Of a stretch of 64,000 nt of DNA, positions 5,210-63,596 are shown piece by piece (position 1 is the first letter of the stretch; the number at the start of each line of letters is the position of its first letter). The position numbers and the translations under genes were made by a program. The stretch covers positions 232 through 64,231 of the forward strand of contig CADBUF010000012.1 of the NCBI GenBank assembly GCA_902797795.1, written 5' to 3'. The DNA is from an uncultured Erysipelotrichaceae bacterium (GTDB lineage Bacteria > Bacillota_I > Bacilli_A > RFN20 > CAG-826). Below the pieces are notes generated by a model. The model did not search any database and was not told where the DNA came from. It saw only the letters and a list, made by a program, of their open reading frames with translations.

Positions 5210-5211
5210 AA

Positions 5212-6303: not shown

Positions 6304-6306
6304 TGA

Positions 6307-7605: not shown

Positions 7606-7608
7606 TTT

Positions 7609-8916: not shown

Positions 8917-8917
8917 A

Positions 8918-11242: not shown

Positions 11243-11246
11243 AGCC

Positions 11247-31796: not shown

Positions 31797-32720
31797 CTAT
31801 TTCTTTTTCTTTTTCTCTGTGTCTTCTTTATGAATCTGTTTCATTTCTTCTGTGTCTTGTTTGCCAGAAGTTTCGTTATAGAAGTTAACAATAATAGAGG
31901 TGATGACCGCCACAACGACAATGCCGTACATACCAAGAAGCACAGTAACTACTCTACCAATTAACGTTTTAGCAGTGAAATCGCCAAAACCAATCGTAGT
32001 GACAACCGCAAAAGAGTACCATAATCCATCACCAAAAGTTGTAATCGATTCTTCAAAATAGGCAAAGACAATCGCAGAAGCCACTACCATGGTTAATAAA
32101 CCAAGGAGAACTTCTAAAGCGAAAGTACGGATGATGATTTTTAATAATGTCTTTAGTTTTAATTGTAAGAAAGCGTTTGCAAGAACTTCGATTAAAGAAG
32201 CAATAATGACAATAAAACAAACTATCATAATTGGGGCAAACATTTCCGTAGGTCCATAAGGCACAAATAAACCAAGAGCGAGTAAAGCAAATAAAGTAAT
32301 AATAAGAGCGTTTAAAACAATACTTCTAACCGTCGGCTTTTGAATGATTTTAAAGATACGGGAAATAATAATAGAGATACAGAATATTCCCCCGCATGCA
32401 GAATAACAATAGGAGTTATCTTTACCAAAGTAGGCAATTACGCCTAGAGAAATATTTAGAACAAATAAAAAGGCAAATCTTATTAAATTAGTTCTTGTTC
32501 GATCTCTTAAATACGTAACGAATCTTGATAAACCTAAAACAATAAAGATTAAAAACATATAAACCGACACCATAGTAGCGTCAGGTGGAGTTAATCTTGC
32601 GTAATATAAGGCCATGATTGAAAAGGCCATGATGATAGTTGAAATAGCACTACCAAGAGTGAGCAAAAGCACCCTTACAGTGGTTTCAGTTAATTTTATT
32701 CTTCCGTGTTTTTTACTCAT
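31797..32720 (-). CDS. potassium-channel-like membrane protein (paralog A)
   Basis: 307 aa. Multi-TM N-terminus, pore helix + selectivity filter WYSFAVVTTIGFGD followed by an inner helix, Lys-rich C-tail. Confidence 0.65.
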   Translation of the reverse strand: MSKKHGRIKLTETTVRVLLLTLGSAISTIIMAFSIMALYYARLTPPDATMVSVYMFLIFIVLGLSRFVTYLRDRTRTNLIRFAFLFVLNISLGVIAYFGKDNSYCYSACGGIFCISIIISRIFKIIQKPTVRSIVLNALIITLFALLALGLFVPYGPTEMFAPIMIVCFIVIIASLIEVLANAFLQLKLKTLLKIIIRTFALEVLLGLLTMVVASAIVFAYFEESITTFGDGLWYSFAVVTTIGFGDFTAKTLIGRVVTVLLGMYGIVVVAVITSIIVNFYNETSGKQDTEEMKQIHKEDTEKKKKK

Positions 32721-34632: not shown

Positions 34633-35475
34633 TTATATAAATAATTGTTTGATTGTTTTGACAATCTTTCGTCTTTTTCCTTGATATATTCCATCACCAG
34701 AATATAGAACCTTAAATCCACACTTATCTAAAACCCTTAAGCTTGCCTTGTTGTTTTCAAGAACAACACCATAGACTTCTTTTAAATTTGTGTTTCTCTT
34801 TAAATATCCTAAGAAAAGATTTACGGCTTCTGTTGCATACCCTTTTTTGGTAAATAGTTTAGCGATGTGATAGCCTATTTCCCATCCTTCTTTTATTTTT
34901 ACTAATTGAATGTAACCAATATTTGCATTATCGTCTTTTCTAATAATTACGTATACAAACGGACCGTTTTCGCTACCATAGTTTTTAATAATTTGATCTA
35001 CCACTTCGCTAGCTTCTTCTAAAGATTCAAAGACTTCATCTGGAGAAAATTTTCTGTTGTCTTCGTCTTGTGAATTACGAAACACATCATAATACATGGA
35101 TTGATTCATTTTAGCTATATAGAGTCTATTTCCATCAATAAGTTTTTCACTTGTGTTTAATAACTCTTTGTTAACAATGTCTTTCCAATCTTGAAAATGA
35201 GAAAGAACACGTAATATAAATACGGTTTTTGTTGATTCGTTAATTTGATAAATAGCAATGTGATTTAAGCAAACTAAATAGTAAGACCTTGCATAATCAA
35301 ATAATGAATTTCTAATTTTGATTCCGCGGCTTGGAAAAGTAGATAAAGATTCCAATTTATCAAATATTTTTTCAATGTAATGAGTCGCAGCATTTATATT
35401 ATCAGCAGAAATAAAAGACTTGATGTTCTCCAAGTCTTTAAAGGCAGAATTAGAAATAATAACATTATATGTCAT
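34633..35475 (-). CDS. fusion protein: ParE/RelE-family type II toxin domain (N-term) + GNAT N-acetyltransferase domain (RimL/Acetyltransf_3-like, C-term)
   Basis: N-terminal about 95 aa has ParE/RelE hallmarks (FPSRGIKIRNSLFDYARSYYLVCLNHIAIYQINESTKTVFILRVLSH). C-terminal part has GNAT motifs (IGYIQL...GYATEAV...NKASLRVLDKCGFK). 4-nt overlap with the upstream antitoxin gene. Confidence 0.65.
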   Translation of the reverse strand: MTYNVIISNSAFKDLENIKSFISADNINAATHYIEKIFDKLESLSTFPSRGIKIRNSLFDYARSYYLVCLNHIAIYQINESTKTVFILRVLSHFQDWKDIVNKELLNTSEKLIDGNRLYIAKMNQSMYYDVFRNSQDEDNRKFSPDEVFESLEEASEVVDQIIKNYGSENGPFVYVIIRKDDNANIGYIQLVKIKEGWEIGYHIAKLFTKKGYATEAVNLFLGYLKRNTNLKEVYGVVLENNKASLRVLDKCGFKVLYSGDGIYQGKRRKIVKTIKQLFI

Positions 35476-35720
35476 AGCAATTTCTTTTTTGCCTCGGACA
35501 AAGGCATCATTCTTCCATTTGCAATATCCGCAATACCTTCATTAATTTTTTGCATTAAATCAATACTTCGATATAGTTCGTCTAAAACATGAGAAGCGAC
35601 AATAGCGGTATCTTCTTTACCATTTACAGTAATATATACAGGCTCTTGCGTTAATTTGCACAGCTCACTTATTTCTTTGTATTTGTTTCTTAAGTCTGCA
35701 CTTGGTCTAATAATCGCCAT
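35472..35720 (-). CDS. Phd/YefM-RelB-like type II antitoxin
   Basis: 82 aa. MAIIRPSADLRNKYKEISE...PVYITVNGKEDTAIV resembles Phd/YefM antitoxin fold. Overlaps the toxin gene by 4 nt. Confidence 0.55.
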   Translation of the reverse strand: MAIIRPSADLRNKYKEISELCKLTQEPVYITVNGKEDTAIVASHVLDELYRSIDLMQKINEGIADIANGRMMPLSEAKKKLL

Positions 35721-36496: not shown

Positions 36497-38020
36497 ATGA
36501 AACTATTAAGGATTATCTTTTCTAAATGGAGTATTTCCATCATTTTACTTTTAGCCCAAGTTGCGGCGATTGGACTAATTATTTATTTCTTAAATGCCTA
36601 CTATTACATTTTCCAAATCGTCTCTCTTGTCATTGGAATAATTGTCTTCTTTGTTCTTATAAATCGAAAAGAGAACCCAGAATACAAAATTCCTTGGCTC
36701 TTCTTAGTTCTCATTCTTCCTCTATTTGGTGTCCTTTTCTATTTGATGTTTTCCAAACAACACGCGAGTAAAAAAACGAGAAAATTCTATAAAGAAGCCT
36801 TAGATAAACTCGCCCCATATGTCGAAAATAATGAAGACAATGAAAAAGTCTATGAATATATGGGTGAATATCAAGGTGTTGCTAAATATTTAAAACAAAC
36901 ATCTGGCTTAGGTGGCCAACTTAATAACGACATCAAATACTACCCAGTAGGTGAAAAGATGTGGGTTGATATGTTAGAAGCACTTAACTCCGCGAAGAAA
37001 TTCATCTTAATGGAATATTTCATTATTGATCCAGGAATCATGTGGGATTCAATTCATGAAATTTTAGTCAAAAAAGCGAAAGAAGGCGTCCGCGTTCACC
37101 TTGTCTATGATGATTTAGGAACGATGACAATGCTTAAAAGTAGTTACTATAAGAAGCTTCGTAAAGAAGGTATCGATGCGCACAAATTTAATCCATTCAC
37201 TCCAATTGTGAGTGCAGTATATAATAACCGCTCACACCGTAAAATTATGGTGGTTGATGGAGAAGTTGCCTTCACTGGTGGTATTAACCTTGGTGACGAA
37301 TATATCAATAAAAATGATCGACTTGGTCACTGGAAAGATACTGGTATTAGAGTTAAAGGAAGTGCTGTAAATACTTTAACCGCTTTATTCTTCTTTGATT
37401 TCATCGTTGCTAAAAGAAAAATTCCAGAATTTGATTTCTACTTCAATCCAAATCCAAAGAAATTTAATCAAGAAGGGGCAATCGTTCCTTTTGGAGATGG
37501 TCCAAAGCCAATGTATGAAGACCAAATTGGTGAAGAGAGTTTAATAAGTGTTATTGGTAGAGCCACTAAATATTTCTATATCACAACCCCATATCTCATC
37601 ATTGATTATCATCTCACTATGGCGCTTAAAGACGCCGCTAAAAGAGGGGTTGATGTTAGACTAGTAACTCCTCATATTCCAGATAAGAAAGCAGTTTTCT
37701 GCTTAACAAGAAGTTCGTATAAATTCTTAAGAGAATCAGGTGTAAAGGTTTATGAATACACTCCTGGATTCATCCACGAAAAAACATATCTATGTGATGA
37801 TGTAATAGGATTTGTAGGAACAATTAACCTTGATTATCGTAGCTTAACCCATCACTATGAATGTGGCGCGATTATTTATAAACACGAATGCTTAAAAGAT
37901 ATCAAAGAAGACTTTGAACATATATTCTCCATTTCGCAATACATTGATGACAGCTTTAAATTGTCAGTGGGTGCGAAGTTAGTAAATGCATTGCTCGCTG
38001 TCTTTAGAGCGTTGTTCTAA
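36497..38020 (+). CDS. cls: cardiolipin synthase
   Basis: 507 aa. Two N-terminal TM helices and two PLD HKD motifs (HRKIMVVDGEVAFTGGINLGDEY and HEKTYLCDDVIGFVGTINLDYRS). Confidence 0.9.
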   Translation: MKLLRIIFSKWSISIILLLAQVAAIGLIIYFLNAYYYIFQIVSLVIGIIVFFVLINRKENPEYKIPWLFLVLILPLFGVLFYLMFSKQHASKKTRKFYKEALDKLAPYVENNEDNEKVYEYMGEYQGVAKYLKQTSGLGGQLNNDIKYYPVGEKMWVDMLEALNSAKKFILMEYFIIDPGIMWDSIHEILVKKAKEGVRVHLVYDDLGTMTMLKSSYYKKLRKEGIDAHKFNPFTPIVSAVYNNRSHRKIMVVDGEVAFTGGINLGDEYINKNDRLGHWKDTGIRVKGSAVNTLTALFFFDFIVAKRKIPEFDFYFNPNPKKFNQEGAIVPFGDGPKPMYEDQIGEESLISVIGRATKYFYITTPYLIIDYHLTMALKDAAKRGVDVRLVTPHIPDKKAVFCLTRSSYKFLRESGVKVYEYTPGFIHEKTYLCDDVIGFVGTINLDYRSLTHHYECGAIIYKHECLKDIKEDFEHIFSISQYIDDSFKLSVGAKLVNALLAVFRALF

Positions 38021-38028
38021 TGCACAAG

Positions 38029-38054
38029 AAAAGCGGGATTCCCGCTTTTTCTCT
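38029..38054 (+). terminator. rho-independent terminator after cls (possibly bidirectional)
   Basis: AAGCGGGAttCCCGCTT hairpin followed by TTTTTCTCTT. Confidence 0.7.
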
Positions 38055-38971
38055 TATTCCTTCTTGTTTTGTTCTTCAAGTTCCTTGATTTGTTTTTCAA
38101 GTCGCTCAATATCTCTTTGTTCTCTTTTCTTGTTCATTTCGTTATAGAAGTTAACGATGAAGGAAGTGAATACCGCGACAACGGCGATGCCACTTATTCC
38201 CAAGAAAACTGATAGAATTCTTCCAAAAGTAGTAACTACATATACATCACCAAAACCAATCGTGGTGATAACCGCAAATGAATACCACAAAGAATCAACA
38301 TAACTCACAATATTTGGTTCCACTAAAGTGAAATATAAGGAACATAAAATAACAAGGATAGATAGAGTTAAGATAATCTCATTAATAAGTGACTTTTTAA
38401 TGATGTTACTAATGACATTGAATTTTAATATGTTTTGATAAGGGAAGAGCAAATTCTTACCACTAGAAACAATGATCATCGAAGAAAAACATAGAACGAT
38501 AAAATTAGAATTACTAACTGAGGTAGCGTGTTTACCATAGATTTCTGGGAAAAAGAACACAAAAGAGAAGAGGAACGCTAAAGTGATACATAAACAGTTG
38601 AATATGATTGATTGTAAAGAACGATCTTCTCTTATCTTAAGTAAACGATAAACAACGATTGTTAAAGAATATAAGAACATCGAAGTAATAAGGAAATATA
38701 TGCTATATTTAGTAAGTGAGACTAAGACAGCAAGAACAAAAATAAAGGCGGTTAAGAAAATGTTTTCAAACATGTTCTTTTTAAAATTTGAAAGGTGTAA
38801 ACCAACGCGATTAATACCTAAACATACTAAGGCAATTGATAATGTGTAAAGACCAACGTAACTATCCTCCACTGAAAAAGCAACTGTGGCTATACAAAAA
38901 CCAATCGCGATTATTCCACTAATTAAGCCAAATATGTAGTAAGGGTTTTTTCTGTTTCCAACTTTTTCCAT
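38054..38971 (-). CDS. potassium-channel-like membrane protein (paralog B)
   Basis: 305 aa. WYSFAVITTIGFGD filter, same architecture as 31797-32720. Charged coiled-coil-like C-tail (EQRDIERLEKQIKELEEQNKKE). Confidence 0.65.
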   Translation of the reverse strand: MEKVGNRKNPYYIFGLISGIIAIGFCIATVAFSVEDSYVGLYTLSIALVCLGINRVGLHLSNFKKNMFENIFLTAFIFVLAVLVSLTKYSIYFLITSMFLYSLTIVVYRLLKIREDRSLQSIIFNCLCITLAFLFSFVFFFPEIYGKHATSVSNSNFIVLCFSSMIIVSSGKNLLFPYQNILKFNVISNIIKKSLINEIILTLSILVILCSLYFTLVEPNIVSYVDSLWYSFAVITTIGFGDVYVVTTFGRILSVFLGISGIAVVAVFTSFIVNFYNEMNKKREQRDIERLEKQIKELEEQNKKE

Positions 38972-39050
38972 AATTAATCTTCTATATTATATATAAAAAC
39001 GTCAACTAATGTTATTTTCTTGTAATGTAGTCAATTAATAATTCAAATGA

Positions 39051-41162
39051 TTACATTTTAATAATAAGGATATTTTTGTTATTAGAGTAATAATAATCAA
39101 TAGCCTTACTAATGTTACGAATAATAGAGATACCTAATCCTCCAACAATCCCTTCTTCAACGTTTTCTTGAACGGTTCTATTTTTCATTTTCAAAGGATT
39201 GAATGGGTGAGAATTATCAATAAAGATTAAGGTAATATCATCTTTTTTCTTTTCTACTTGGATAGTAATCTTTTTATTTGTTTTAGCCTTGCCGTAGGAG
39301 ATGATATTATTCAAAGCATCATCGATGATAACTCCAATTTTACTAACGACATCAACTGGTGACTCACTTAAATATTCACCAACTTGATTTGTGACTTTTT
39401 CAATATCGTCATAACAAGGATTTTCAATTTCAATATTTAAGATCTCTGGTCTAATTTTTAAAGAGAGAATTGTAATATCATCAAATTGTTCTTCCTTACC
39501 TCTAAATTTAGTAATGTCATCAATCGTATTATCGATTTTTTCTTTGATTTCTTTGTCATTATTCAAATCATCAAAAATTCTTTGATAACCATATTCTTCT
39601 TTTTTCTCATTAATCGCTTCATTTAATCCATCGGTGTGTAAGAATATTTCATCATTTTTATCAAGTTGGATAGATTCTTGTTCATAAATGAAATCTTCTT
39701 CTAAACCTAAAACAAAGTTAGAGTTAACTTTTAATTGTTGAAGTTTGCCTTTGTGTTTTACAAACGGACGTTCATGACCAGCGTTTACAAATTCAAATTT
39801 ATAAGTTTTCACATTAAGTACACCTAAGAAGACAGTGACAAAATATCCTTCTTTATTATTGATGCACAAACTGTTATTAACTTTGTTAAGTACTTCAGAT
39901 AAGCTTCTTTCAATGTGACATGCGGCTTTAATTTTTTCTTTCGCTCGCATCATAAATAAGCTAGCAGGAATACCTTTACCAGAGACATCAGCGATAACGA
40001 CCGCTAAGTGGTCTTTATCAACGAAGAAATAATCATAGAAATCCCCACCTACTACTTTAGCAGGAAGAATGAGGGTTCTAACTTCAATGTTATGTTCAAA
40101 ATATGTTGTGTCTGGTAAAGAATCCAATTGAATCTTACTAGCGATTTCTACTTCCGTATTAAATTGTTGCTCTTTAGCTTTAGCCTTTTTGATATTATCA
40201 ACATATTCAATGATTTGGTGTTGCATCTCATTAAATTCATTAGATAAGTCTCTAACTTCATCATTAGATTTGATGTTACTATTAATAACTTCTAAAGGTT
40301 CATCATTTTTCATCTTCTCAACGAAAGAAGTTGTCGCTTTTGATAATTTGCGGAAATTCTTAATAAGGAAAAATTTCGTAAATAAAGCATATATAACAAC
40401 TAGAACAATCGCTGCTCCAATAGTGATTAATAATTCAGTGGTTAATTGTTGATTGAATGTTTTATTAAATTCATATAGAGGATATTGAGTAACGATATAG
40501 CAACGGTATTTACTATCATCAACCCCCTCGGTGTAATATTTTAAGTAGGCATAAGAAGCATAATCATCCGCATATTTAGTGCTTGCTTGATTAGATGAAA
40601 GGAAAGATAATTCCGTATTATTAGTGACCCGATACGCTAATCCAACCACCCCGTAATTACCAGTAAGAGGGATACTACCTTCGACTAAATCGATGATCTT
40701 TCCTCTAAGAGCGTCATAAACAAACATTCGACTATTAACTGAAGTATAACGTTCGCTCACAGATTGAATGCTCGTAATAATTGAACCATAAAAGTTATTT
40801 CTAGCAGCCTGAATAAAAGATAAGCCCATTCCGCTGGTGCTACCAAATAAAGAAATTCGAGTATCTCCTTGATATTTAGCTAATTCAGTAGGGTCTAATT
40901 GCTCATAAGTATCCGCGACTGTTTCATATCTACTAATGAGCTCTTCAATAATCGATTGAAAGCCGTTATTTGGATCTGGAATAACTCTTACAACATCGTT
41001 AATAGAATTAGTGACTTGCTCACAAGTATTTGTGTAATTGTTTTTAGTGTTTTTATGGGAAATTAATAAGTTTACAGTTAGACTTGTGGTCACAATTAAA
41101 ATCGTCAACCCACCGGTTAACAAAATAATCTTACCAAGTAAACCAAGTCTAATTTTTTTCAT
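39051..41162 (-). CDS. membrane sensor with extracytoplasmic domain, HAMP linker, PP2C/SpoIIE-type Ser phosphatase domain and C-terminal RsbW-like HATPase_c_2 Ser-kinase domain
   Basis: 703 aa. TM1 (aa about 10-33), about 210-aa extracellular region, TM2 (LLITIGAAIVLVVIYALFTKFFLI), HAMP-like helices. PP2C motifs VGGDFYDYFF...ADVSGKGIPASLFM...HTDGLNEA. RsbW-like N/G boxes (IIDDALNNIISYG, IFIDNSHPFNP, GGLGISII). Confidence 0.75.
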   Translation of the reverse strand: MKKIRLGLLGKIILLTGGLTILIVTTSLTVNLLISHKNTKNNYTNTCEQVTNSINDVVRVIPDPNNGFQSIIEELISRYETVADTYEQLDPTELAKYQGDTRISLFGSTSGMGLSFIQAARNNFYGSIITSIQSVSERYTSVNSRMFVYDALRGKIIDLVEGSIPLTGNYGVVGLAYRVTNNTELSFLSSNQASTKYADDYASYAYLKYYTEGVDDSKYRCYIVTQYPLYEFNKTFNQQLTTELLITIGAAIVLVVIYALFTKFFLIKNFRKLSKATTSFVEKMKNDEPLEVINSNIKSNDEVRDLSNEFNEMQHQIIEYVDNIKKAKAKEQQFNTEVEIASKIQLDSLPDTTYFEHNIEVRTLILPAKVVGGDFYDYFFVDKDHLAVVIADVSGKGIPASLFMMRAKEKIKAACHIERSLSEVLNKVNNSLCINNKEGYFVTVFLGVLNVKTYKFEFVNAGHERPFVKHKGKLQQLKVNSNFVLGLEEDFIYEQESIQLDKNDEIFLHTDGLNEAINEKKEEYGYQRIFDDLNNDKEIKEKIDNTIDDITKFRGKEEQFDDITILSLKIRPEILNIEIENPCYDDIEKVTNQVGEYLSESPVDVVSKIGVIIDDALNNIISYGKAKTNKKITIQVEKKKDDITLIFIDNSHPFNPLKMKNRTVQENVEEGIVGGLGISIIRNISKAIDYYYSNNKNILIIKM

Positions 41163-41165
41163 TAT

Positions 41166-41465
41166 CTATTCCACTGTTAAGAATTTATCAAAACCAGTGA
41201 CGGAGAAAATTTCTTTAATGACGTCGTTACAGTTTTTAATCACTAATTTCTTATTAGTGGCTTGTGCGTCTTTTTTAAAGGCGATTAATAGTCTTAATCC
41301 AGCAGAAGAGATGTATTCGAGTTTTGCAAAATCCAAAACAACATCTAAATCATTTCTTTCTTCATGAGGAACTTTTTCAGTTAATTCTTGGGAAGTAACG
41401 GTGTCTAATCTTCCTTCTAAGGCGATTGTGATAACACCTTTTTCTTTAGTTGTTTTAATAGTCAT
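41166..41465 (-). CDS. STAS-domain anti-sigma-factor antagonist (SpoIIAA/RsbV-like)
   Basis: 99 aa. ITIALEGRLDTVTSQEL...LDFAKLEYISSAGLRLL with conserved phosphorylatable Ser in the YISSAGL motif. Confidence 0.8.
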   Translation of the reverse strand: MTIKTTKEKGVITIALEGRLDTVTSQELTEKVPHEERNDLDVVLDFAKLEYISSAGLRLLIAFKKDAQATNKKLVIKNCNDVIKEIFSVTGFDKFLTVE

Positions 41466-41467
41466 AA

Positions 41468-43234
41468 TTACGCTCCTTGTAAATTAATTTCTAAATATGT
41501 ATTGTTGGTATTTAACACTCTTGTGTAAGACATGTTAGATATCACTTTTCTCACTAATAATATACCACTAGTGGAGAATTCATGTTCATCTTCTTTATAT
41601 TGGGTTGGATCGAAGATGATTCCATCATCTCTAATAGAGAGTAACATTTTATCATTACTTATTCTTAAGGTGACGTCGATATAATAACGATGATTTTTAA
41701 AGCGATAACCATATTGGATGATATTAGCCACCATTTCTTCAGCGCCAATAGAAATCATCGTCGCATCTCTTTTATTCGCCCCATGTTTTAAGGCATATTC
41801 TTTTACTTCCATTGATAATTCTTCAACTTCATTGATGTCGTTAGTAATCGTGACATCATATTTATCTTGAATTTCAATATTAGGAATCATTAATAATCCT
41901 TCGGAAGTAGTTTTCTTCTTCTTGTTATAAATATAAATAAAGATATAAGTGATAAAGACAGTTCCTAATTCTGTTGCCGCTTGAGACACACAATATCCCT
42001 TTAAACCATAAGAGAATAATAGGCCTAAAGTTAAAGGAATAACTAAAATTAATTCTCGACATAATACAGTGACATAGGCAGGAACATTTTTAGTAATAGT
42101 CGGGTAATACATTTGATTGTATTTAGAAATCTCATAAGGAATAAAAGCAGCGAGATAAATCCAAATACATGTAAAGGTAAGACCGCTATTAGAGGTATAT
42201 TCACTAAATCCAAAGACTGTGCAATAAACTCCAGGGAAGATGGCAATAAGAGCGGTTAAAAAGACAGTTACCGCTAAATTAATAATGAAGATTTTTTTCG
42301 CTATTTTTCTTAAGGCGTAATAATCTCTTTCCCCATAAAGCACCCCACAAATATTTGGAATGGTTTGGATAATTCCACCTGCAAATAAATCAAAGACAAA
42401 GACCATGTTGGCAAGAATTCCAAAGATCATAATCTCAAAATTATCTTCAATTACTTTTGAAACATAGATCGAACAAATCGACATCTGTATCGCCGTTAAA
42501 AACATATTAAGGGCAAGCGAACTACTAGCCTTCAATGAATCAATCAAGCACTCCTTAGATGAGTCAAATTTAAAGGTCAATGAAAGCATACGTTTTTTGC
42601 TCTTAATATAGAAAAATACGAGCAAAATGCCGACAAAATATCCAAAACCGGTAGATAAAGCCGCTCCATACATCCCCATATCGCACCACTTAATAAAGGC
42701 GTATTCGGAACCAATTTTAAAGATATTAGCGACGATATACATCGCTGAAGCAAGACGTGGATTATTGTCTGCGCCAATGAAAGATCCTAAAAGTAAAGCA
42801 AGGGTGATAATTGGATCAGTGAGCATGAAGATAAGAATATATTGTCTAGCGTATTCAACGATATCGTTTGGGCAGAATAATTTCGCTAATGGTTCAGCAG
42901 TTAAATAGGCTAGTCCAGCAAATAAAAGAGAAAAAGCCATACCAATAATTAAACATAACGAGAATGTTGTTTTGGATTTAGAGACATTCCGTTTGCCTAA
43001 ATAATTAGCCACTACAATAGCACCACCCGTACCGATAGCAAATCCAGGCAATTGAATGATATATAAAATCGGTAAAACAAGAGAGGAAGCACTTAAAGCG
43101 TCATTACCAATGAAGTTACCAACAAAGATACCATCCACAAGCGAGCCAAATTGCATCGCAAAAATCATGAACATTGAAGGAAGAAGATATTGGATAAGTT
43201 TTTTATCCATCAATTTAGAATTACGAGCAAGCAT
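41468..43234 (-). CDS. MATE-family transporter fused to C-terminal RsbW/SpoIIAB-like HATPase_c_2 (anti-sigma-factor-type Ser kinase) domain
   Basis: 588 aa. N-terminal about 440 aa 12-TM MATE hallmark (LLPSMFMIFAMQFGSLVDGIFVGNFIGNDALSASSLVLPI...GTGGAIVVANYLGKRN). C-terminal about 140 aa with kinase N-box EMVANIIQYG, G1 IRDDGIIFDP, G2 STSGILLV. Confidence 0.65.
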   Translation of the reverse strand: MLARNSKLMDKKLIQYLLPSMFMIFAMQFGSLVDGIFVGNFIGNDALSASSLVLPILYIIQLPGFAIGTGGAIVVANYLGKRNVSKSKTTFSLCLIIGMAFSLLFAGLAYLTAEPLAKLFCPNDIVEYARQYILIFMLTDPIITLALLLGSFIGADNNPRLASAMYIVANIFKIGSEYAFIKWCDMGMYGAALSTGFGYFVGILLVFFYIKSKKRMLSLTFKFDSSKECLIDSLKASSSLALNMFLTAIQMSICSIYVSKVIEDNFEIMIFGILANMVFVFDLFAGGIIQTIPNICGVLYGERDYYALRKIAKKIFIINLAVTVFLTALIAIFPGVYCTVFGFSEYTSNSGLTFTCIWIYLAAFIPYEISKYNQMYYPTITKNVPAYVTVLCRELILVIPLTLGLLFSYGLKGYCVSQAATELGTVFITYIFIYIYNKKKKTTSEGLLMIPNIEIQDKYDVTITNDINEVEELSMEVKEYALKHGANKRDATMISIGAEEMVANIIQYGYRFKNHRYYIDVTLRISNDKMLLSIRDDGIIFDPTQYKEDEHEFSTSGILLVRKVISNMSYTRVLNTNNTYLEINLQGA

Positions 43235-43236
43235 AA

Positions 43237-46200
43237 TTAATCGTCCCTTTCAAAGTAATCTAAGGAAATCAAAGACTTAATAGCCTTAGTTAAATATTCT
43301 TGGTCAGTAATTGGCCATTTATAGCCTAAGCGGTAAAGCGCTTTAATCGAAAATGAATTATCGGTAAGGATATAAGAGTGAGAATGATTATCACTACTTG
43401 TATAAGTAATTAAAGCAGACACTTTCTTGCTCTTAACGTCATCATTTGTAGCTTTAATAACCTCATCCATAAATTCTTTATCCCCAACTTTTTCAATCTT
43501 TAAGCCACAGTCATTCATTGCTTCAATCACATCACCCATTTCTACAGGATGAGAATTTGCACTATGGAAGACGGTGAATTCTTTTGGAGCGGTCGCTAAA
43601 ACGAGAATGCTCTTAGCGACTTCATCAATTGGAGAGAAGTCGGTCGTTTCATCCAAAGAAGAGATTGGGAATTTTCCTAAAGCGTAATAACCTCGTAGAG
43701 ATCGCATAAATCCGTTAGTAATAGAGTTAATTTGGAATTCTCCATCGCTTTGACGTGACATCAAATTACCGACACGAACAATCTTTCCATCTAATCCATC
43801 TTTATTAATTGCCTCTAACATCGCTGCTTCCGCCATAAACTTAGAATGGATATATTTGTTAGAAATATCTTGTCCGATGTCTAATTGGTTTTCTTTCATA
43901 CGGAAGTTTTCAGCGAACTTATGGTCAATATTTTCGCCCGCAACTGATAAAGTGGAGATTTGAATCATTCTCGCATTATGCTTTAAAGCGATTCCAATGA
44001 GGTTTTTCACCCCTCCAACATTAATTTTTTCAATGATATCATCATTTGAGAAATGTTTAACAATCGCTGCTGAATTAATAAGTGTGTCAAATTTGATATC
44101 TTTGAGTTTATCGGTTAAGTTCTCGTCTGCAATATCTCCATCAACGATATGAATAAAGCTATCAAGTTCTTCAGTAAATGGAGAATCGAAATAATATTCA
44201 AGTAATAGAGAAAGTCTACTATGTAAGGAGATTTGTTTACTTCTTACTAACACATATGTTTCTATGTGCTGATCAATTAATTCTTTAAGAATATGAATTC
44301 CTAAAAAGCCAGTCGCACCAGTTAAAAGGACAACACCTAAATCTCTTTCTTTATGAATATCATCAACATATTCAATCGTGTTTTTATTAAGCGCTGCATA
44401 TTTATTATCCTTAGATTCTTCTACTGCTTTTTCTTCTTCCACCACCTCTTCATCTTTATTAATTAATGAAGCAAGTTCAAGGGCAGTAGAATGTTCAAAA
44501 ACATCTTTATAGGCAATTGGTAAGCCCTCTTTAAGAGCGAGCATTGCAACTTTTGAAGCGCTTAAAGAAGTACCACCTAATTCAAAGAAATCTTCATCGA
44601 TTCCGATATCTTGTTTTCCAAGGGCTTTAGCAAAGATTTCACAAATCGTTTTTTCAGTTTTGTTTCTAGGTGCTTTCTTTTCTTTATTAGAGGAAGTAGA
44701 AACAATTTCTGGTAATGATTTCTTATCAATCTTGCCATTAGGAGTAAGAGGGATACGATCAAGTTGCATCATTGCTTTAGGAATCATATATGGGGTAAGT
44801 GATTTTGCCATATATGAAGTTAAAGTTTCTTTATCTAAAGGTTTTGACGCGGTGTAATAAAGCGCTAAATAGTCGCCATCAACATCATTATTTTTCACTA
44901 AAATGACGCATCTAGTGACGTCTGGATGAGAATTACAAACGTTTTCAATCTCATCTAATTCAATTCTTAATCCATGTAATTTTATTTGGTTATCAAGACG
45001 TCCAAAGAATTCGGTGTTACCTTCATTATTCATTCTAGCAAGGTCACCACTTCGATAGGCTCTTTTACCGTTTAAATCAATAAATGAGGCTTTGGTTTTT
45101 TCTTCAAGTTTATAATAGCCAATACCAACACTATCACCGGCAATAGTTAAATCACCAATCGCATTAATTGGTAAAATATGACCAGCCTTATCCAAGATGT
45201 AATAGCTAGTGTTAGCAACAGGTTTACCAATAGTGACATATTTATCAGTAATAAAGGTCATTGATGAAGTAATCGTTGTTTCTGTTGGACCATAACCATT
45301 ATCAATCAGGCAATCAATGCCATGTTTTCTTATACGATCCACTAATTCATAAGGAACAGCCTCTGCTCCCATATCAAGCACTTTGAAGTTCTTTAATGCT
45401 TCAACAAATTCTAGAGTATCTAAAACGTTAGAAACGTATGAAGGAGTTAAGAACATAATGTTAACTCCATATTTCTTTAATGTTTGTGATAATAAAAGTG
45501 GGTTTTCAATCTCTTCTTCACTAGCGATCACTGCTTGATAACCATGAGAGAGAATGACACATTCTTCTTGTAAAGAAGCATCAAAAGCAAAAGAAGCAAA
45601 CGAGCAGCTAGACACTTTGTCTTTAATAATGCGATATTCGTTAGTGGCTAAATTAGCGCCATCTAAGACATAATTTGATAAATTCTTATGACTAATCATC
45701 ACCCCTTTAGGTTTACCAGTGCTACCAGAGGTATAGATGATGTAACATAGTGAATCTAGTGGGATACCAATATTTAAATTGCTTGTCTTATTAGATTTCA
45801 AAATGTCTTCAATTAAAAGAACTTTAATCTTTGTCTTTTTAATGAGGTCATGTTTTTCTTTTTCAATATCTTTAGTGGTTATTAAAATCTTCGCGTCACT
45901 ATCGGTGATGATATATTCAATACGATCATCAGGATATTTAGGATCAATAGCGACAAAGGCTCCACCCGATTTAAGAATACCTTCTCTAACGAAATAAGCA
46001 CTTACTCTTCTAGGCATGAGCATGATTACTCTTTCACCAAGAGCGACTTTATCTTCAGACAAAGCATGAGCGACTTTATTCGCGTTTTCGTTAAATTGTT
46101 TATATGTATATTCTCCATCAACACCCGCTAAAGCGAGTCTATTTGGATATTTCTCCACTATTTCTTCTACGATCTTAGGGTAGGCTTTATTTGAAGGTTT

Positions 46201-49200
46201 AACATATGTTTGGTTAAATTCTTCATATAACTTTTTATCAACTTCTGGTAAGCAGTTAATTTCACTGATGTGTTTTTTAGATGTCACTTCCAGTAACGCC
46301 AATTCAAATAATCTAGCAAATGATTCAATCGTATTCTTGTTATACATTGATTCATCATATTCAAAATGAAGTTTGAATTTATTATCTTCGATGAAAACAT
46401 CTAAAGAGAATAGTGATTTCGCATCATCTGAATCCAATATCACACTTTCAGCTTTCTTATTACCGATTTCATTAAATTCAAATAAGTCTCCTTGATAAGC
46501 AAACATCACATCACTAGTGATATTAAAGGCTGAGGCTATTTCTTGGAAAGAATAGATGTCGTTTATTTGTGAAGACTCTAATTGTTTCTTCATCTCTTCT
46601 AGTAGAGATAACACTTCATCATTTTCTTGATATTTAACATAAACTGGTAAAGTTTTTACCATCATCGAAACAGTGTTCATGTTCTTAGATGAATTTCTCC
46701 CATTATAGATAGTGACAAACAAAGCATCCTGCTTATAAATAAATTTAGAGAAGGTAAAACCAAATACGAAGTTAGTGATCGCATTTAGGGTTAAATTGTT
46801 CTTACTAGCGAATTCTTTAATCGCTTTGACATCAATATTAGAATAGATATCTTCAACATGTAATTTAGCGACTTCTTCAGTCTTTAAATCTTTCTTCATG
46901 AGATATCCATCTTCGACATCTTTCAATAAAGTAGCGTAATATTCTTTCGCATTTTCATAGGCTTTTGAATTACGTTTATCGTTCTCTTCTAAAGCAAGTT
47001 CATAGCCAGTGAAGGTTTCTTTTTCAAGCTTTTCACCAGAATAAGCTTTATTAATATCATTTAAAAGGATATTTTCACTAGTGCCATCACAGATAAGATG
47101 ATGAACATCTAAGAAGAGGTAATTATTATCTTTACATTCATAGATTTCAACACGATATAAAGGACCACCAACGATTTCAAAAGGTCTAACCAAAGATTTT
47201 TGATCGAGCTTATTAGCTTTAATAATTTCAACTTTTGGTTCAGCTTCTTTTCTTATAGCCTTGATGTTCCCATCATCGTCCATCTTCAAAGTTGTTAAAA
47301 GATATTCATGAGCCTTTAAGGCCTTAATCACACTTTCATTAAGTTTATTGATATCGATAGACTTATCAATTTTAAATAATAAAGGAATGTTATAATTTGT
47401 ACTTCCAACTTTAGCGATTGATTCAATAAAGATACCTTCTTGAGTCTTGGTTAATGGGTATTCACTTAATAAATCATAAGTCTTGTTTTCATCTTGTTCT
47501 TCCATCAAAGAAGCGAGTTCTTTAATGTTAGGGTGCTCGTTTAAATCTTGAGAAGAGATCTCTTTATTAAATGCTTTAGATAATCTCACAGTTAAAGTGA
47601 TAGAAGAAATAGAGGTAATACCAGCCTCATATATATCAGTAGTCACTCCAAAAGAATCATGACCTAAAATCTCTTTTATAATATCAAAGATCTTTTGTTC
47701 ATTTTCAGTGCTAGGTTTAACGACATCCTCCACTTTCAATTCAGGAACTGGTAAAGCTTTTTTATTCACTTTTTGGTTTTGATTAAGTGGAATTGCATCT
47801 ATTTGCATAATATATGGGGGGACCATATAAGGTGGCTTTTTACTTTTAATGAAAGCTTTTAAGTCATCAACGTCAATCTTTTTATCACTGACGATATAAC
47901 CCACGATATATTTAACTCCAGCGGGGTCCGCAAAATCTTTAACAGTCGCGTCTTTAATGTCTGGATATTGTCTAATAACTTGTTCGACTTCACTTAATTC
48001 CACACGGAAGCCACGTATTTTCACTTGGAAGTCTTTTCTTCCAATAAAATCGATATCTCCATTTGGAAGGAATCTTACGATATCACCAGTCTTATAAAGT
48101 TTTTTAAATCGAGGATCATCATCGAAAGGATTAATCAAGAAGGCCTTTTTATTTTCTTCGTCTCTATTTAGATATCCACGAGACACTTGAGGACCAGAAA
48201 TATATAACTCACCTTTAGCAAGATATGGTAATCTCTTTTTATTTTCGTCTAATACATAGAATTTATAATCGCTTAAAGCGTGACCAATTGGGATACGATG
48301 ATAAAGTTTATCAACATGATATCCGGAACAATATATTGTTCCTTCTGTTGGTCCATATAAATTGAATAGCTTATAGTTTTTAGGTGGGTCAAGAGGGACT
48401 AACTTTTCTCCTCCTACAGAAATAGTTCTAATCGTTTCAAATGTTAATTCACTCACTAATTGTCGACCTACTTGAGTAGTAAAGAAGGCATCAGTAATTT
48501 TATTTTCATTTAAATATTTATTTAGTCCAATGAGATCTAATCGCATCTCTTCAGGAATGATATAAATAGTTCCCCCGACCACGATAGTTGGATATAAATC
48601 AAGCATATCAGCGTCAAATCCATATGAAGCATAGGCACTCACTCTCGCGTCATGTTGGAGATTTCTAAAATTAATATCAACATTACAAACTGACATGATG
48701 TTTTGGTGTTCTAACATTACTCCTTTAGGAACACCAGTGGAGCCAGAAGTATATAACATGATAAAAAGGTTTTCAGGTCTAGGTCTATTTGTAGGTCGAG
48801 ATTCATCTTTCAATTTATCAAATTCATCAAGATAAATAACTGGGCCTTTATATTCATCGAGTAAATCAATATATTGTCTTTCGGCGATAACAACTTTACT
48901 AGATGCATCCTTAACCATGAAGTTAAGTCTTTCTTTAGGATAAGAAACATCTAATGGTTGATAGGCTGCACAAGATTTAATAACTCCTAAAGAGGCAATA
49001 ACAATATATTCACTTTTCGAAATAAGGATTGAAACTTTGTCTTCCTCTTTAACACCAAGTCTAATCAATTCATTAGCGATTCTATTTGAATAGAGGTCAA
49101 CTTCCTTATAGGTGTAACTCTTATCTTTATAGACCACTAAGGTTTTATTGGGCTCCTTATTAAGCCAATAATCAAATTTATCAAGAATTGTTTTTCCCTG

Positions 49201-50472
49201 TTCAAGTTGACTCATATCAACATGATTAAAGTCATCTAAAATCTTGATTTGTTTTTCATCTAAAAGTTCAATTTCTTCAAGTTTTAATGGTGATTTGAGC
49301 AGTTTTTTAAGAATTATGTCATATAAATCAATGATTTGATTAATCGAGTCATCACTATATAAATCACTTCTAAATTCAAACCAAATATAGAACTTATTTC
49401 TATCTCTATGGATCTCAATAGACATGATTCCTTTTCCATCTTTTTCTTCGATTTGTTTAGCCACTACTTCTTTGTCGTTGAATGTTGTTTTAAACATATA
49501 ATCACCTTGATAGGCAAATAAGATTTCAGGAGAGACACCTAAATTTGTAACAACTTGAGAGAAGGAATATAAATCATGTTTAACATTATTAATCAATTCG
49601 TCATTAACCTTATTAAACATTTCTTTGGAAGTTTTGATATTTTCTAAATTGAGATAAAGAGGGAATGTCCTTACAAACATACCAAAAGTATTTTCTAATG
49701 TTTCATCTCTACCATTATGAATGGAAGCAATTATTACTTCTTTGTCCATGTTCACTTTTGAAAGGAGGAACATAAAACAAGAGATAAAATAGCTTGATGT
49801 TTTAATTCCTTGCTTATGAGTAAATTCACGAACCTCACTAGCGTCAACTTTTAATTCTTTTTTAATCGTATGATGACTAATTTCTTCTTTTTTATAGTCC
49901 TCGACTATTGTACTTTCAGTGTCGATTCCACCATAGTTGTCTTTATAATATTTTTCAGCTTCTTTAAATTCCTTGGATTTTAGAAGTTTTTGTTCGCGCT
50001 TACAGTAGGAGAAGACATCTTCTTTTTCAGAAGGTATTTTCTTTCCTTTATATAAAGCATCTAAGGAATCAATGAATAATTTAATTGTGTTACCATCAGC
50101 GATGATGTGATGGAAATCAAAAAATAGATAATATTCTTTATTAACTTTTAAAAGCTCAAAACGATATAAGTGATGGTTAAATAGATCAAATTCCTTCACC
50201 AACCCTTTTTCATTAATCTTTTTTAATTCTTTAAGAGGGACTTTGATATCTTCTACATGACATTCTTTGTAGAAGTTTCCTTCATCATCTTTTTTAATGA
50301 TCGTAAATATCCCTTGATGGACTTTACTAAACTCATTAATAGCGGCCTCTATTTTCTTGGCGTCAACATCTTCTCCTAAAGGTAATAAAGAAGGGAGGTT
50401 ATATTTAGTTGTCGGTTTTAAACATTCAAACAAAATCCCTAATTCAGATTGCGATAAAAGATACTTTTCCAT
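43237..50472 (-). CDS. dimodular non-ribosomal peptide synthetase, C-A-T-C-A-T-R (terminal thioester reductase)
   Basis: 2411 aa. C1 HHIIADG (aa 121-127). A1 cores LYTSGSTGVPKGV / NLYGPTEG / YKTGDIVRF...GRKDFQVKIRGFRVEL with FDAD (Asp235). T1 GITSIS. C2 HHLICDG. A2 YTSGSTGKPKGV / NGYGPTET / YRSGDLARM...GRLDNQIKLHGLRIEL with FDAS. T2 LGGTSLSA. R domain Rossmann VVLLTGATGFLGIHIL. Confidence 0.95.
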   Translation of the reverse strand: MEKYLLSQSELGILFECLKPTTKYNLPSLLPLGEDVDAKKIEAAINEFSKVHQGIFTIIKKDDEGNFYKECHVEDIKVPLKELKKINEKGLVKEFDLFNHHLYRFELLKVNKEYYLFFDFHHIIADGNTIKLFIDSLDALYKGKKIPSEKEDVFSYCKREQKLLKSKEFKEAEKYYKDNYGGIDTESTIVEDYKKEEISHHTIKKELKVDASEVREFTHKQGIKTSSYFISCFMFLLSKVNMDKEVIIASIHNGRDETLENTFGMFVRTFPLYLNLENIKTSKEMFNKVNDELINNVKHDLYSFSQVVTNLGVSPEILFAYQGDYMFKTTFNDKEVVAKQIEEKDGKGIMSIEIHRDRNKFYIWFEFRSDLYSDDSINQIIDLYDIILKKLLKSPLKLEEIELLDEKQIKILDDFNHVDMSQLEQGKTILDKFDYWLNKEPNKTLVVYKDKSYTYKEVDLYSNRIANELIRLGVKEEDKVSILISKSEYIVIASLGVIKSCAAYQPLDVSYPKERLNFMVKDASSKVVIAERQYIDLLDEYKGPVIYLDEFDKLKDESRPTNRPRPENLFIMLYTSGSTGVPKGVMLEHQNIMSVCNVDINFRNLQHDARVSAYASYGFDADMLDLYPTIVVGGTIYIIPEEMRLDLIGLNKYLNENKITDAFFTTQVGRQLVSELTFETIRTISVGGEKLVPLDPPKNYKLFNLYGPTEGTIYCSGYHVDKLYHRIPIGHALSDYKFYVLDENKKRLPYLAKGELYISGPQVSRGYLNRDEENKKAFLINPFDDDPRFKKLYKTGDIVRFLPNGDIDFIGRKDFQVKIRGFRVELSEVEQVIRQYPDIKDATVKDFADPAGVKYIVGYIVSDKKIDVDDLKAFIKSKKPPYMVPPYIMQIDAIPLNQNQKVNKKALPVPELKVEDVVKPSTENEQKIFDIIKEILGHDSFGVTTDIYEAGITSISSITLTVRLSKAFNKEISSQDLNEHPNIKELASLMEEQDENKTYDLLSEYPLTKTQEGIFIESIAKVGSTNYNIPLLFKIDKSIDINKLNESVIKALKAHEYLLTTLKMDDDGNIKAIRKEAEPKVEIIKANKLDQKSLVRPFEIVGGPLYRVEIYECKDNNYLFLDVHHLICDGTSENILLNDINKAYSGEKLEKETFTGYELALEENDKRNSKAYENAKEYYATLLKDVEDGYLMKKDLKTEEVAKLHVEDIYSNIDVKAIKEFASKNNLTLNAITNFVFGFTFSKFIYKQDALFVTIYNGRNSSKNMNTVSMMVKTLPVYVKYQENDEVLSLLEEMKKQLESSQINDIYSFQEIASAFNITSDVMFAYQGDLFEFNEIGNKKAESVILDSDDAKSLFSLDVFIEDNKFKLHFEYDESMYNKNTIESFARLFELALLEVTSKKHISEINCLPEVDKKLYEEFNQTYVKPSNKAYPKIVEEIVEKYPNRLALAGVDGEYTYKQFNENANKVAHALSEDKVALGERVIMLMPRRVSAYFVREGILKSGGAFVAIDPKYPDDRIEYIITDSDAKILITTKDIEKEKHDLIKKTKIKVLLIEDILKSNKTSNLNIGIPLDSLCYIIYTSGSTGKPKGVMISHKNLSNYVLDGANLATNEYRIIKDKVSSCSFASFAFDASLQEECVILSHGYQAVIASEEEIENPLLLSQTLKKYGVNIMFLTPSYVSNVLDTLEFVEALKNFKVLDMGAEAVPYELVDRIRKHGIDCLIDNGYGPTETTITSSMTFITDKYVTIGKPVANTSYYILDKAGHILPINAIGDLTIAGDSVGIGYYKLEEKTKASFIDLNGKRAYRSGDLARMNNEGNTEFFGRLDNQIKLHGLRIELDEIENVCNSHPDVTRCVILVKNNDVDGDYLALYYTASKPLDKETLTSYMAKSLTPYMIPKAMMQLDRIPLTPNGKIDKKSLPEIVSTSSNKEKKAPRNKTEKTICEIFAKALGKQDIGIDEDFFELGGTSLSASKVAMLALKEGLPIAYKDVFEHSTALELASLINKDEEVVEEEKAVEESKDNKYAALNKNTIEYVDDIHKERDLGVVLLTGATGFLGIHILKELIDQHIETYVLVRSKQISLHSRLSLLLEYYFDSPFTEELDSFIHIVDGDIADENLTDKLKDIKFDTLINSAAIVKHFSNDDIIEKINVGGVKNLIGIALKHNARMIQISTLSVAGENIDHKFAENFRMKENQLDIGQDISNKYIHSKFMAEAAMLEAINKDGLDGKIVRVGNLMSRQSDGEFQINSITNGFMRSLRGYYALGKFPISSLDETTDFSPIDEVAKSILVLATAPKEFTVFHSANSHPVEMGDVIEAMNDCGLKIEKVGDKEFMDEVIKATNDDVKSKKVSALITYTSSDNHSHSYILTDNSFSIKALYRLGYKWPITDQEYLTKAIKSLISLDYFERDD

Positions 50473-50477
50473 AATTG

Positions 50478-51092
50478 TTATTCCTCCAAAGAATTGATTT
50501 TCTTAATATTTATATTAAATGGTTTTTCCTCTTTTAAAGTAAGAGATAACGAATAGCCATCATATATCATCGATTTAGTGTAACCACCATATCTATTTCC
50601 TTCTAAAGGAAGGCCCTTTATTTTTCTTATATCCATAAGCGAATTAGAGAAACATTTAATAAGGCTTTCTTTATTAGACCAAAGAAGGAATAAATCATTG
50701 ATATCATTAATTTCTTTTTCTTCATCCACTAATGAATATTTAATCGCCCCAATTTTGCTTTGATCAATGCGTTCAATATCCACTCCAACATCTCTATCTA
50801 TAGAGACAGCAAGAACAACATATTCCCCTGAATGTGACAAATTAAAATATGGTCCATTTTCCATATAAGGCTTACCATTATCGGTAAATTTAATCTCTTT
50901 ATGTGGAAGAAATTTATATAGTAAATACCCTCCACCCAAGGAGAGAATTTGATCCTTTTTTTGAACGAACCTATTAGCTTTTTCAATTCGACTTTTATCA
51001 ATATGAGAAACAATAAAAGAATAATTGTCGTTTACAAAAGAAGTATGAAGAATATAGACATTAATTTCATTCATTAAAAAATATTCTAACAC
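50478..51092 (-). CDS. Sfp-type 4'-phosphopantetheinyl transferase
   Basis: 204 aa. VGVDIERI and WSNKESLIKC (W..KE...K) motifs. 5-nt gap to the NRPS start. Confidence 0.8.
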   Translation of the reverse strand: MLEYFLMNEINVYILHTSFVNDNYSFIVSHIDKSRIEKANRFVQKKDQILSLGGGYLLYKFLPHKEIKFTDNGKPYMENGPYFNLSHSGEYVVLAVSIDRDVGVDIERIDQSKIGAIKYSLVDEEKEINDINDLFLLWSNKESLIKCFSNSLMDIRKIKGLPLEGNRYGGYTKSMIYDGYSLSLTLKEEKPFNINIKKINSLEE

Positions 51093-51149
51093 ACCTATGT
51101 ATTACGCGTTAATAATTTCCGTTCAATAAATTGAAAGAGGATTATATAA

Positions 51150-51929: not shown

Positions 51930-52028
51930 CGCTTTTATAAAAAGACAGTAGATGAATTAGTGGACTACATCGATAAAATGATTGCTATGATCATTAATAT
52001 TTAAAATATCGGAAAAAATAATTATACC

Positions 52029-52931: not shown

Positions 52932-53022
52932 GATTAATAGGATACTCTTTTTTATAAAAAGGCGATAGAAAAAGGACTCTTTAATAACCTATTTTGAATA
53001 AGAGGTTAATAGGAGTAAATCG

Positions 53023-58862: not shown

Positions 58863-58863
58863 A

Positions 58864-59958: not shown

Positions 59959-60113
59959 CTGTAAAATAATTTCAATTTTTAATTATTGTTTTTGATTTTT
60001 TTGACATTTTTTGCAAAATAATTCAGTACAATAACTGTCTAATCAAAAGCAGAGAGCTCAAAATAATTGATACCTTTAAAAACCAATGCAAGGAAACAGA
60101 GTGCTTCAATCCA

Positions 60114-63113: not shown

Positions 63114-63596
63114 CAAGTACTCCCCTATCTCGTATCTATAAAATATTATGTTATAAGAAATCTTATTAATAAAGAAAATAAGCATACAAATGAACAATAA
63201 TAAGAATAATAATCTTTAAATAATAAAATTTCGGAAACACGACAATCATCTTCGTGAGTAATCATATGTTAACATATGTAAGATTTAAACCATAGCTAGT
63301 AGACTTCATAGATCATATCTTGCGATATTGGATCGAGAAAGGCCCATTTCATCCGCGAATTGTGTTTGGCTTAAGTTGAATAGTTTTCTAATTGTTTTTT
63401 ATGTCTTTTTTACATTGAATGTTTTCACAAACAAATTGTAGCATTTGCTACATTTTATTTTAAGATTGCACTGATTAAATAGAAAAGACCTATTTATAGG
63501 TCTTTAATATCTATATCAGTAGTAATTGTGGTTGTCTAAGGTCAGTTATTCAATTTGATCTAAAAATTCGTATAGTTTTTGAAATTAAAGGCATTA

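Follow-up and report, generated by a model that had tools for sequence, protein, structure and literature searches.

The window analyzed here, a stretch of 64,000 nucleotides (nt) from an uncultured Erysipelotrichaceae bacterium (GenBank assembly GCA_902797795.1, contig CADBUF010000012.1, positions 232 to 64,231), encodes a partner-switch module that consists of a transmembrane sensor phosphatase with a C-terminal kinase-like domain (hereinafter PP2CK), a single-domain STAS protein and a MATE transporter fused to an RsbW-like domain (MATE-K). The genes of this module are the last three of a compact operon on the minus strand, in which gaps of 2-5 nt separate, in this order, the genes for a 4'-phosphopantetheinyl transferase (PPTase), a nonribosomal peptide synthetase (NRPS), MATE-K, STAS and PP2CK. 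We conclude that this NRPS/MATE cassette is the functional home of the module and hold this conclusion with much higher confidence than the mechanism of export control proposed below. With regard to the latter, we propose, at roughly even confidence, that the partner switch works without a sigma factor and acts, in response to an extracellular cue, on the MATE pump of the cassette itself, which would export the NRPS product.

The first gene of the cassette encodes the PPTase (50478..51092, minus strand, as are all genes of the cassette; Pfam AASDHPPT_N, E = 3.6e-09; ACPS, 1.1e-06) and is separated by 5 nt from the gene for a 2411 amino acid (aa) two-module NRPS (43237..50472), in which Pfam identifies two Condensation, two AMP-binding and two PP-binding domains followed by a terminal reductase (NAD_binding_4, residues 2050-2289). 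The resulting C-A-T-C-A-T-R layout is reportedly that of a gut Clostridia dipeptide-aldehyde NRPS family described by Guo et al. in 2017. The next gene encodes MATE-K (588 aa; 41468..43234), which combines a DinF-like MATE transporter (MatE, 1.6e-25) with a C-terminal RsbW-like HATPase_c_2 domain (residues 464-572; 41519..41845; 6.4e-11), followed by the genes for the 99-aa RsbV/SpoIIAA-like STAS protein (41166..41465; STAS, 2.7e-16; STAS_2, 8.7e-13) and for the 703-aa PP2CK (39051..41162), in which hydrophobic segments, Pfam, AlphaFold2 (AF2) and fold matches delineate, in this order, a first transmembrane helix (TM1), an extracytoplasmic domain (ECD), a second transmembrane helix (TM2), a HAMP-like segment, a PP2C domain and a second HATPase_c_2 domain. 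A first-pass annotation, made from the sequence alone, had described the last two genes as a sensor protein with HAMP, PP2C and kinase domains and its lone STAS partner; both reading frames lie where it placed them, and a tblastn search of the window, which detects no more than two HATPase_c_2 domains besides a single STAS and a single PP2C domain, bears out the single STAS and the second kinase-like domain on the MATE fusion. A scan of positions 38000-53200 for promoters and terminators found promoter-like sites to be rarer than in shuffled sequences and did not reveal a clear intra-operon terminator. A 259-aa open reading frame at 51150-51929 was considered as an additional member of the cassette and rejected, having neither a Pfam match nor a homolog in the related loci. 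Directly downstream of the cassette lies one (38054-38971, minus strand) of two paralogous Ion_trans_2 (K+ channel-like) membrane proteins, the other being encoded at 31797-32720 (minus strand); homologs are found near the cassette in two related loci (L023 and L026) and not generally.

The association of these genes is not due to chance because the set is conserved in more than 40 independent loci. A scan limited to one genome per species yielded 41 loci, all in rumen or ruminant metagenome-assembled genomes, and the hosts of the cassette are labeled as Erysipelotrichaceae, Bacilli, Acholeplasmatales, Clostridia and Christensenellales. According to tblastn, NRPS, MATE-K, STAS and PP2CK occur together and in that order in 38 of the 45 related loci, and two further loci end at the contig edge after the STAS gene. 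The NRPS gene is located directly upstream of MATE-K in 44 of the 45, that is, wherever upstream sequence exists (53-81% identity), STAS follows MATE-K in 42, and homologs of the PPTase are encoded in most of the loci, in two cases (L035 and L044) downstream of the phosphatase. Three annotated contexts (L001, L003 and L004; MATE-K identity of 51-61%) contain the same five genes surrounded by wholly different neighbors. Given this synteny with unrelated flanks, the partner-switch genes are part of a mobile, conserved biosynthetic cassette rather than an orphan signaling pair. The cassette is not mentioned in a survey of rumen biosynthetic gene clusters (BGC) (PMC8241843) or in the BiG-SLiCE paper.

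Some of the loci carry additional STAS genes. A second STAS is encoded upstream of the PPTase in L001 (1770-2069), whereas pairs of STAS and PP2C-kinase genes are located downstream of the cassette in L011 (14682-17670) and upstream of it in L030 (3-1836). In L024 (8325-17666) and L041 (11745-21099), a response-regulator-like gene is followed by a radical-SAM-like gene, two genes for transporter-like proteins of approximately 725 aa and then two more STAS genes, one of which encodes a 384-aa STAS fusion.

The transporter fusion itself is not confined to these loci. In MATE-K, the Pfam MatE domain matches in two stretches, multiple hydrophobic segments are present, and the nearest solved structure is that of DinF-BH (5c6o, 6.4e-23, over residues 11-434). 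The more than 120 clusters of MATE-K homologs (51-98% identity) all encompass both domains, and the one homolog that has an NCBI name is a 'hypothetical protein'. An exhaustive phmmer search with the HATPase_c_2 domain of MATE-K against representatives at 50% identity retrieved 1612 representatives at E<=1e-3, of which 135 reach E<=1e-10; among the best 150, 67 are 540-800 aa long, carry the domain C-terminally and are counted as fusions of MATE and HATPase_c_2. When ten of the representatives were searched against Pfam, nine showed the combination of MatE and HATPase_c_2, and the tenth, P0241 (140 aa), HATPase_c_2 alone; two of the nine, P0331 and P0269, are MATE transporters with two tandem C-terminal HATPase_c_2 domains. 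We found no paper that joins HATPase_c_2 and MatE in a literature search.

Four of the six divergent MATE-K loci for which the genomic context was analyzed (approximately 30% domain identity) have partner-switch neighbors. These are a HATPase_c_2 fragment, SpoIIE and MATE-K in L046; MATE-K, two unrelated genes (one AAA ATPase-like, the other without a Pfam match), STAS, a stand-alone HATPase_c_2 and SpoIIE in L047, the locus of P0331; a 252-aa STAS protein, MatE and MATE-K in L049; and an NRPS reductase domain, MATE-K and STAS in L051, the locus of P0269. The remaining two (L050 and L052) are short contigs that contain no partner-switch or NRPS genes. Thus, STAS, PP2C and RsbW-like neighbors are found with or without an NRPS, and the constant companion is the transporter fusion. 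This distribution bears on the alternative that the module controls synthesis or self-protection, with STAS or its phosphorylated form binding the NRPS, or with the entire module serving as a sensor of envelope or product-toxicity stress. The strict NRPS linkage in the cassette would fit such a role, and timing or self-protection would be useful for a product of the reactive aldehyde class, which is suggested by analogy (PMC12327764). However, no NRPS domain resembles a partner of STAS or RsbW, and L046, L047 and L049 combine divergent MATE-K with STAS or SpoIIE genes in the absence of an NRPS, which identifies the transporter as the constant partner; we consider control of synthesis or self-protection very unlikely.

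The two kinase-like domains differ in the motifs that they retain. The domain of MATE-K and that of PP2CK (PP2CK-K, C-terminal, residues 599-701; 39060..39368, minus strand; 7e-11) both exceed the Pfam gathering score (42.7 and 42.8 bits vs 27.4), are homologous to each other (hhalign probability 97.9%) and, in profile searches, have RsbW (6m36) and SpoIIAB (1tid and related entries) as their nearest, though weak, matches; phmmer searches of the PDB with each single domain sequence returned only noise. MATE-K contains the N-box EEMVANIIQYGY, the G1 box RDDGIIFDPT and a reduced G2 box, 'STSG'. The N-box 'EE..xNI..YGY', the G1 box 'RDDG..FDPT' and the 'STSG' that replaces the 'GGxG' of the G2 box are invariant in 12 family members, and across the 67 divergent representatives, the N-box Glu is conserved in 67-68 of 68 sequences, the N-box Asn in 64, the G1 Asp in 65 and the single G2 Gly in 64. 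In PP2CK-K, the N-box 'DE..NN..SY' and the G2 box 'GG[FL]G' are preserved, with invariant D614, N618, N619, G674, G675 and G677, and the position of the G1 Asp is occupied by S, T, V, C, N or K in most orthologs; the clade that includes the protein from the window keeps the G1 Asp and has Ser instead of the G1 Gly. In GHKL ATPases, the G1 Asp contacts adenine. Because MATE-K retains the N-box and the G1 Asp whereas the G1 box of PP2CK-K is degenerate, the MATE-fused domain is, judging by these motifs, the better candidate for a nucleotide-binding equivalent of RsbW, and PP2CK-K looks like a degenerate docking or regulatory domain. The two kinase domains of the first-pass annotation are, accordingly, both present as HATPase_c_2 domains and both doubtful as kinases, the one with the G1 Asp lost in most orthologs and the other with a reduced G2 box.

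In PP2CK, two hydrophobic segments (residues 6-24 and 244-262) flank a loop of approximately 210-220 aa, in agreement with the initial description of an extracellular loop of about 210 aa between two TM helices. The AF2 model of the full-length protein has a pLDDT of 86.9. The loop is confidently predicted to fold, not to be disordered, and forms in the model a Cache/PDC-like ECD (residues ~25-243; 40434..41090, minus strand) with four helices and a six-stranded sheet (pLDDT 92.7, pTM 0.87 for the domain model). The best Foldseek matches of the ECD in the PDB are Cache/PDC sensor domains, namely those of PctD (7prq, 2.4e-3), 8py0, WalK (4ywz), 3lie and Chlamydia RsbU (6mab); these matches are weak, none at E<=1e-3 and with TM scores of about 0.3. 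A Pfam search with the ECD gave no match, and the ECD is the fastest evolving part (mean p-distance 0.78). TM2 is followed by a HAMP-like helix-loop-helix (residues ~266-330; 40173..40367, minus strand), which is modeled by AF2 as a helix extending to residue 285, a loop (286-301) and another helix (302-348). The SpoIIE and HATPase_c_2 parts of the initially proposed HAMP-PP2C-kinase architecture are confirmed by Pfam, whereas the HAMP part falls under the threshold (18.2 bits vs the gathering score of 25), with a match to the AS2 half, the second helix, alone; the AF2 topology and the conserved 'DE[IV]xxLSxxFxxM' motif in this region are consistent with a HAMP-like transmitter. The SpoIIE/PP2C domain (residues 383-570; 39453..40016, minus strand; Pfam SpoIIE, 7.4e-43) structurally matches RssB, SiaA and SpoIIE. 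All 48 homologs compared, the most distant with 29% identity, share the invariant residues D374, D377, D392, G395, D511, G512, D561 and D562, among them the metal-binding D374, D392, D511, D561 and D562; the phosphatase is probably active. In a metagenomic homolog of 812 aa, P0148, a STAS domain (residues 1-98; 65% identical to the STAS protein of the window) is fused in frame to the sensor-PP2C-kinase protein, either as a natural fusion or as an artefact of assembly or readthrough.

The combination of opposing activities in one chain was pointed out in the first-pass annotation. The PP2C and RsbW-like domains are indeed both present, but the arrangement is not unusual: it is shared with Rv1364c of Mycobacterium tuberculosis, the RsbU and RsbW domains of which are the best fold match of PP2CK (3ke6, E = 1.8e-16, 357 columns), and with HsbR of Pseudomonas aeruginosa and CrsR of Shewanella, in which a phosphatase is combined with a kinase/anti-sigma domain in one chain (PMC6482189). 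This resemblance raises the possibility that PP2CK is a truly bifunctional switch of the same type, toggled by the extracellular signal, with the MATE-fused domain an inert reader of the STAS state. Besides the common architecture, such a switch would be compatible with the invariant N-box and canonical GGxG G2 box of PP2CK-K, the non-canonical G2 box of MATE-K and the STAS-PP2CK fusion in P0148. We nevertheless regard it as quite unlikely, given the variable G1 Asp position of PP2CK-K together with the replacement of the G1 Gly by Ser in the window clade, and the conservation of the N-box Glu and Asn and the G1 Asp of MATE-K (64-68 of the 68 divergent representatives), an indication that nucleotide binding has been retained there. 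The differences from Rv1364c, HsbR and CrsR are the input, which in those proteins is a PAS or REC domain and here a transmembrane Cache-like/HAMP-like sensor, the loss of the G1 Asp in most orthologs and the further RsbW-like domain on the transporter.

The predicted phospho-acceptor of the STAS protein is Ser54 (codon at 41304..41306, minus strand) in the motif 'YISSAGLR'; this serine has not been replaced in any of 39 STAS orthologs, in which the entire 'Y[IV]SSAGLR' motif is invariant. From a by-eye alignment, we take Ser54 to correspond to the phosphorylated Ser58 of SpoIIAA ('DSSGLG'). To identify the domain with which STAS co-evolves, we used a mirror-tree test on the 26 loci that have all the genes, in which pairwise distances were compared while controlling for NRPS distances. 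The partial correlation coefficient (r) of STAS is 0.54 with the MATE-K domain, 0.36 with the membrane part of the MATE transporter, 0.25 with PP2CK-K and 0.13 with PP2C; MATE-K ranks above PP2CK-K in 98% of bootstraps over loci, and a Mantel-type permutation for STAS and the MATE-K domain gives p ~5e-4. These values suggest, and only suggest, that STAS co-evolves most tightly with the MATE-fused domain.

The output of the switch is the next issue to consider. None of the 47 open reading frames of at least 90 aa in the 64-kb window matches a sigma-factor family in Pfam, the only DNA-binding regulator in the window is a distant TetR (25317-25940), and the conserved block contains no sigma factor or transcription factor in the L001, L003 and L004 contexts. 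A sigma-factor explanation was down-weighted accordingly, there being no sigma factor in 64 kb or in the conserved neighborhoods, and the original statement that no cognate sigma factor is encoded nearby holds both for the window and, as regards genes adjoining the module, for these three annotated contexts. We do not follow the companion claim that an output domain is missing from the neighborhood, and regard the exporter-borne RsbW-like domain as the best candidate for the output rather than as just another input. The alternative, which takes up the two-input reading of the first-pass annotation, is that of an integrator in which the state of transport would be reported by the MATE-fused kinase and a ligand by the sensor phosphatase, with the output located elsewhere, such as an orphan pair of sigma and anti-sigma factors or another target. 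Indeed, one STAS protein is served by two HATPase_c_2 domains and one PP2C, the cassette lacks sigma, HTH or GGDEF domains of the output type, STAS proteins can have remote targets, as HsbA does with FlgM and HsbD (PMC6482189), and there are extra STAS genes in L001 (upstream), L011, L024 and L041. However, the cassette moves as a unit among unrelated contexts and phyla, which is hard to reconcile with a host-specific remote partner; there is no sigma factor in 64 kb and no conserved regulator nearby; the co-evolution of STAS is best with the MATE-fused domain; and PP2CK-K lacks the G1 Asp in most orthologs. On balance, we find an integrator with a remote output unlikely.

If the exporter is the output, as we propose, unphosphorylated STAS would alter transport activity by binding the RsbW-like domain that the MATE pump carries at its cytoplasmic C-terminus, and this domain or, less likely, PP2CK-K would phosphorylate Ser54, with the consequent release of STAS. 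PP2CK would be the equivalent of RsbU, its Cache-like outer domain sensing an extracellular cue that leads to the dephosphorylation and re-arming of STAS, whereas PP2CK-K, with its degenerate G1 box, would more likely dock or sequester STAS than serve as a second kinase. Each step of STAS binding and phosphotransfer is inferred here, as are the identity of the exported compound and of the ligand and whether export is raised or lowered. The exported compound is probably the NRPS product, and the latter is probably of the dipeptide aldehyde or pyrazinone type, by analogy with the reductase-terminated dipeptide NRPSs of gut Firmicutes that make dipeptide aldehydes or pyrazinones (PMC12327764). 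That the phospho-STAS switch gates the MATE pump directly, so that the Cache-like sensor phosphatase could determine when a reactive NRPS product is released in the rumen or gut, is a more tentative proposal, to which we assign somewhat less than even confidence.

Several observations weigh against the exporter as the output. The matches of both HATPase_c_2 domains to the RsbW/SpoIIAB profiles are weak (E of 1e-3 to 3e-2), and the kinase activity of MATE-K is uncertain because its G2 box is down to one Gly. Three loci (L028, L031 and L032) have an intact MATE-K domain with neither STAS nor PP2CK adjacent to it, and L024 and L041 retain STAS and contain, instead of PP2CK, the response-regulator-like gene along with bacteriocin-type genes; in view of these variants, either the coupling is not obligatory or the partners act in trans. 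The mirror-tree correlation is weak evidence because the genes have similar rates and share one operon history. Finally, tethering to the membrane would not prevent an RsbW-like domain from sequestering a sigma factor encoded outside the window.

Among the closest known systems are RsbU-RsbV-RsbW and SpoIIE-SpoIIAA-SpoIIAB of Bacillus, with the module compared here to each in turn. These two are systems with which the module shares the PP2C phosphatase, the single-domain STAS protein with a conserved Ser and the RsbW-type HATPase_c_2 domain. The differences are that neither the cassette nor the window encodes a sigma factor, that a 12-TM MATE transporter carries the RsbW-like domain, that a second, G1-degenerate HATPase_c_2 domain resides on the phosphatase and that the module lies inside an NRPS operon. 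RsbU of Chlamydia trachomatis resembles PP2CK in being a membrane-bound phosphatase of the RsbU type, and its extracytoplasmic domain is of the PDC/Cache type, as that of PP2CK may be; 6mab is, however, a weak fold match of the ECD (rank 23, E = 0.17, TM score of about 0.28), and, unlike PP2CK, Chlamydia RsbU neither carries a fused kinase-like domain nor is linked to a transporter or BGC. To our knowledge, Chlamydia has no SigB-type output. Partner switches with a non-sigma output include HsbA-HsbD (PMC6482189), and a parallel to the output proposed here is provided by MlaB of Escherichia coli, a small STAS protein that binds the cytoplasmic nucleotide-binding part of a transporter, regulates the transporter ATPase MlaF and is needed for transporter function (PMC7367683). 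MlaF, however, is an ABC ATPase rather than an RsbW-like domain on a MATE transporter, and no kinase/phosphatase cycle has been described for this pair. With the dipeptide-aldehyde NRPS clusters of gut Clostridia (ruminopeptin/pyrazinone), the cassette shares the two-module NRPS that ends in a reductase and the occurrence in gut or rumen Firmicutes; the literature searched, which did not include the primary papers on these clusters, contains no report of a MATE-kinase/STAS/PP2C module in them. Likewise, our literature search found no paper describing an RsbW-like domain fused to a MATE pump or a full partner-switch set in a conserved NRPS operon. All the building blocks are of known kinds, whereas the fusion of MATE with an RsbW-like domain and the embedding of a partner-switch set in a conserved NRPS operon appear to be undescribed.

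The window outside the cassette contains several other regions of interest, all on the minus strand. The gene at 34633-35475 encodes a 280-aa protein that combines a ParE toxin domain at its N-terminus with a GNAT acetyltransferase domain, an unusual toxin-antitoxin fusion that is preceded and overlapped by an 82-aa antitoxin-like open reading frame (35472-35720). The region at 57630-63197, which encompasses genes for a 1027-aa protein with Metallophos and nSTAND3 NTPase domains, a 364-aa protein without a Pfam match and an AAA_14 ATPase, may be a defense island. Positions 1808-12481 probably contain a purine or pyrimidine degradation cluster: xanthine-dehydrogenase-type subunits (FAD, 2Fe-2S and molybdopterin-binding) are encoded there in two sets, together with two amidohydrolases, an Fe-S protein that resembles DHO-dehydrogenase and a MobA-like transferase. 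A 477-aa protein with the DUF6937 and DUF6938 domains (E of 1e-109 and 2e-84, respectively) is encoded at 20697-22130, adjacent to genes for a melibiase-like glycosidase and an MFS_2 sugar transporter.

Partner switching is usually viewed as a mode of sigma-factor control. The joining of an anti-sigma-type domain to an efflux pump that moves together with an NRPS among rumen Bacilli and Clostridia suggests that it is the export of a metabolite, and not transcription, that is rapidly controlled in response to a signal. If this is the case, the module would be the first partner-switching system with a transporter as its output, that is, a new output class, and the first post-translational control circuit within this class of biosynthetic clusters. 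It would also explain the large unannotated family of proteins that combine MATE and HATPase_c_2, to which the gating would generalize, and the sensor domain and Ser54 of the STAS protein would offer a handle to switch on silent, hard-to-express clusters of the peptide-aldehyde type in gut and rumen bacteria.

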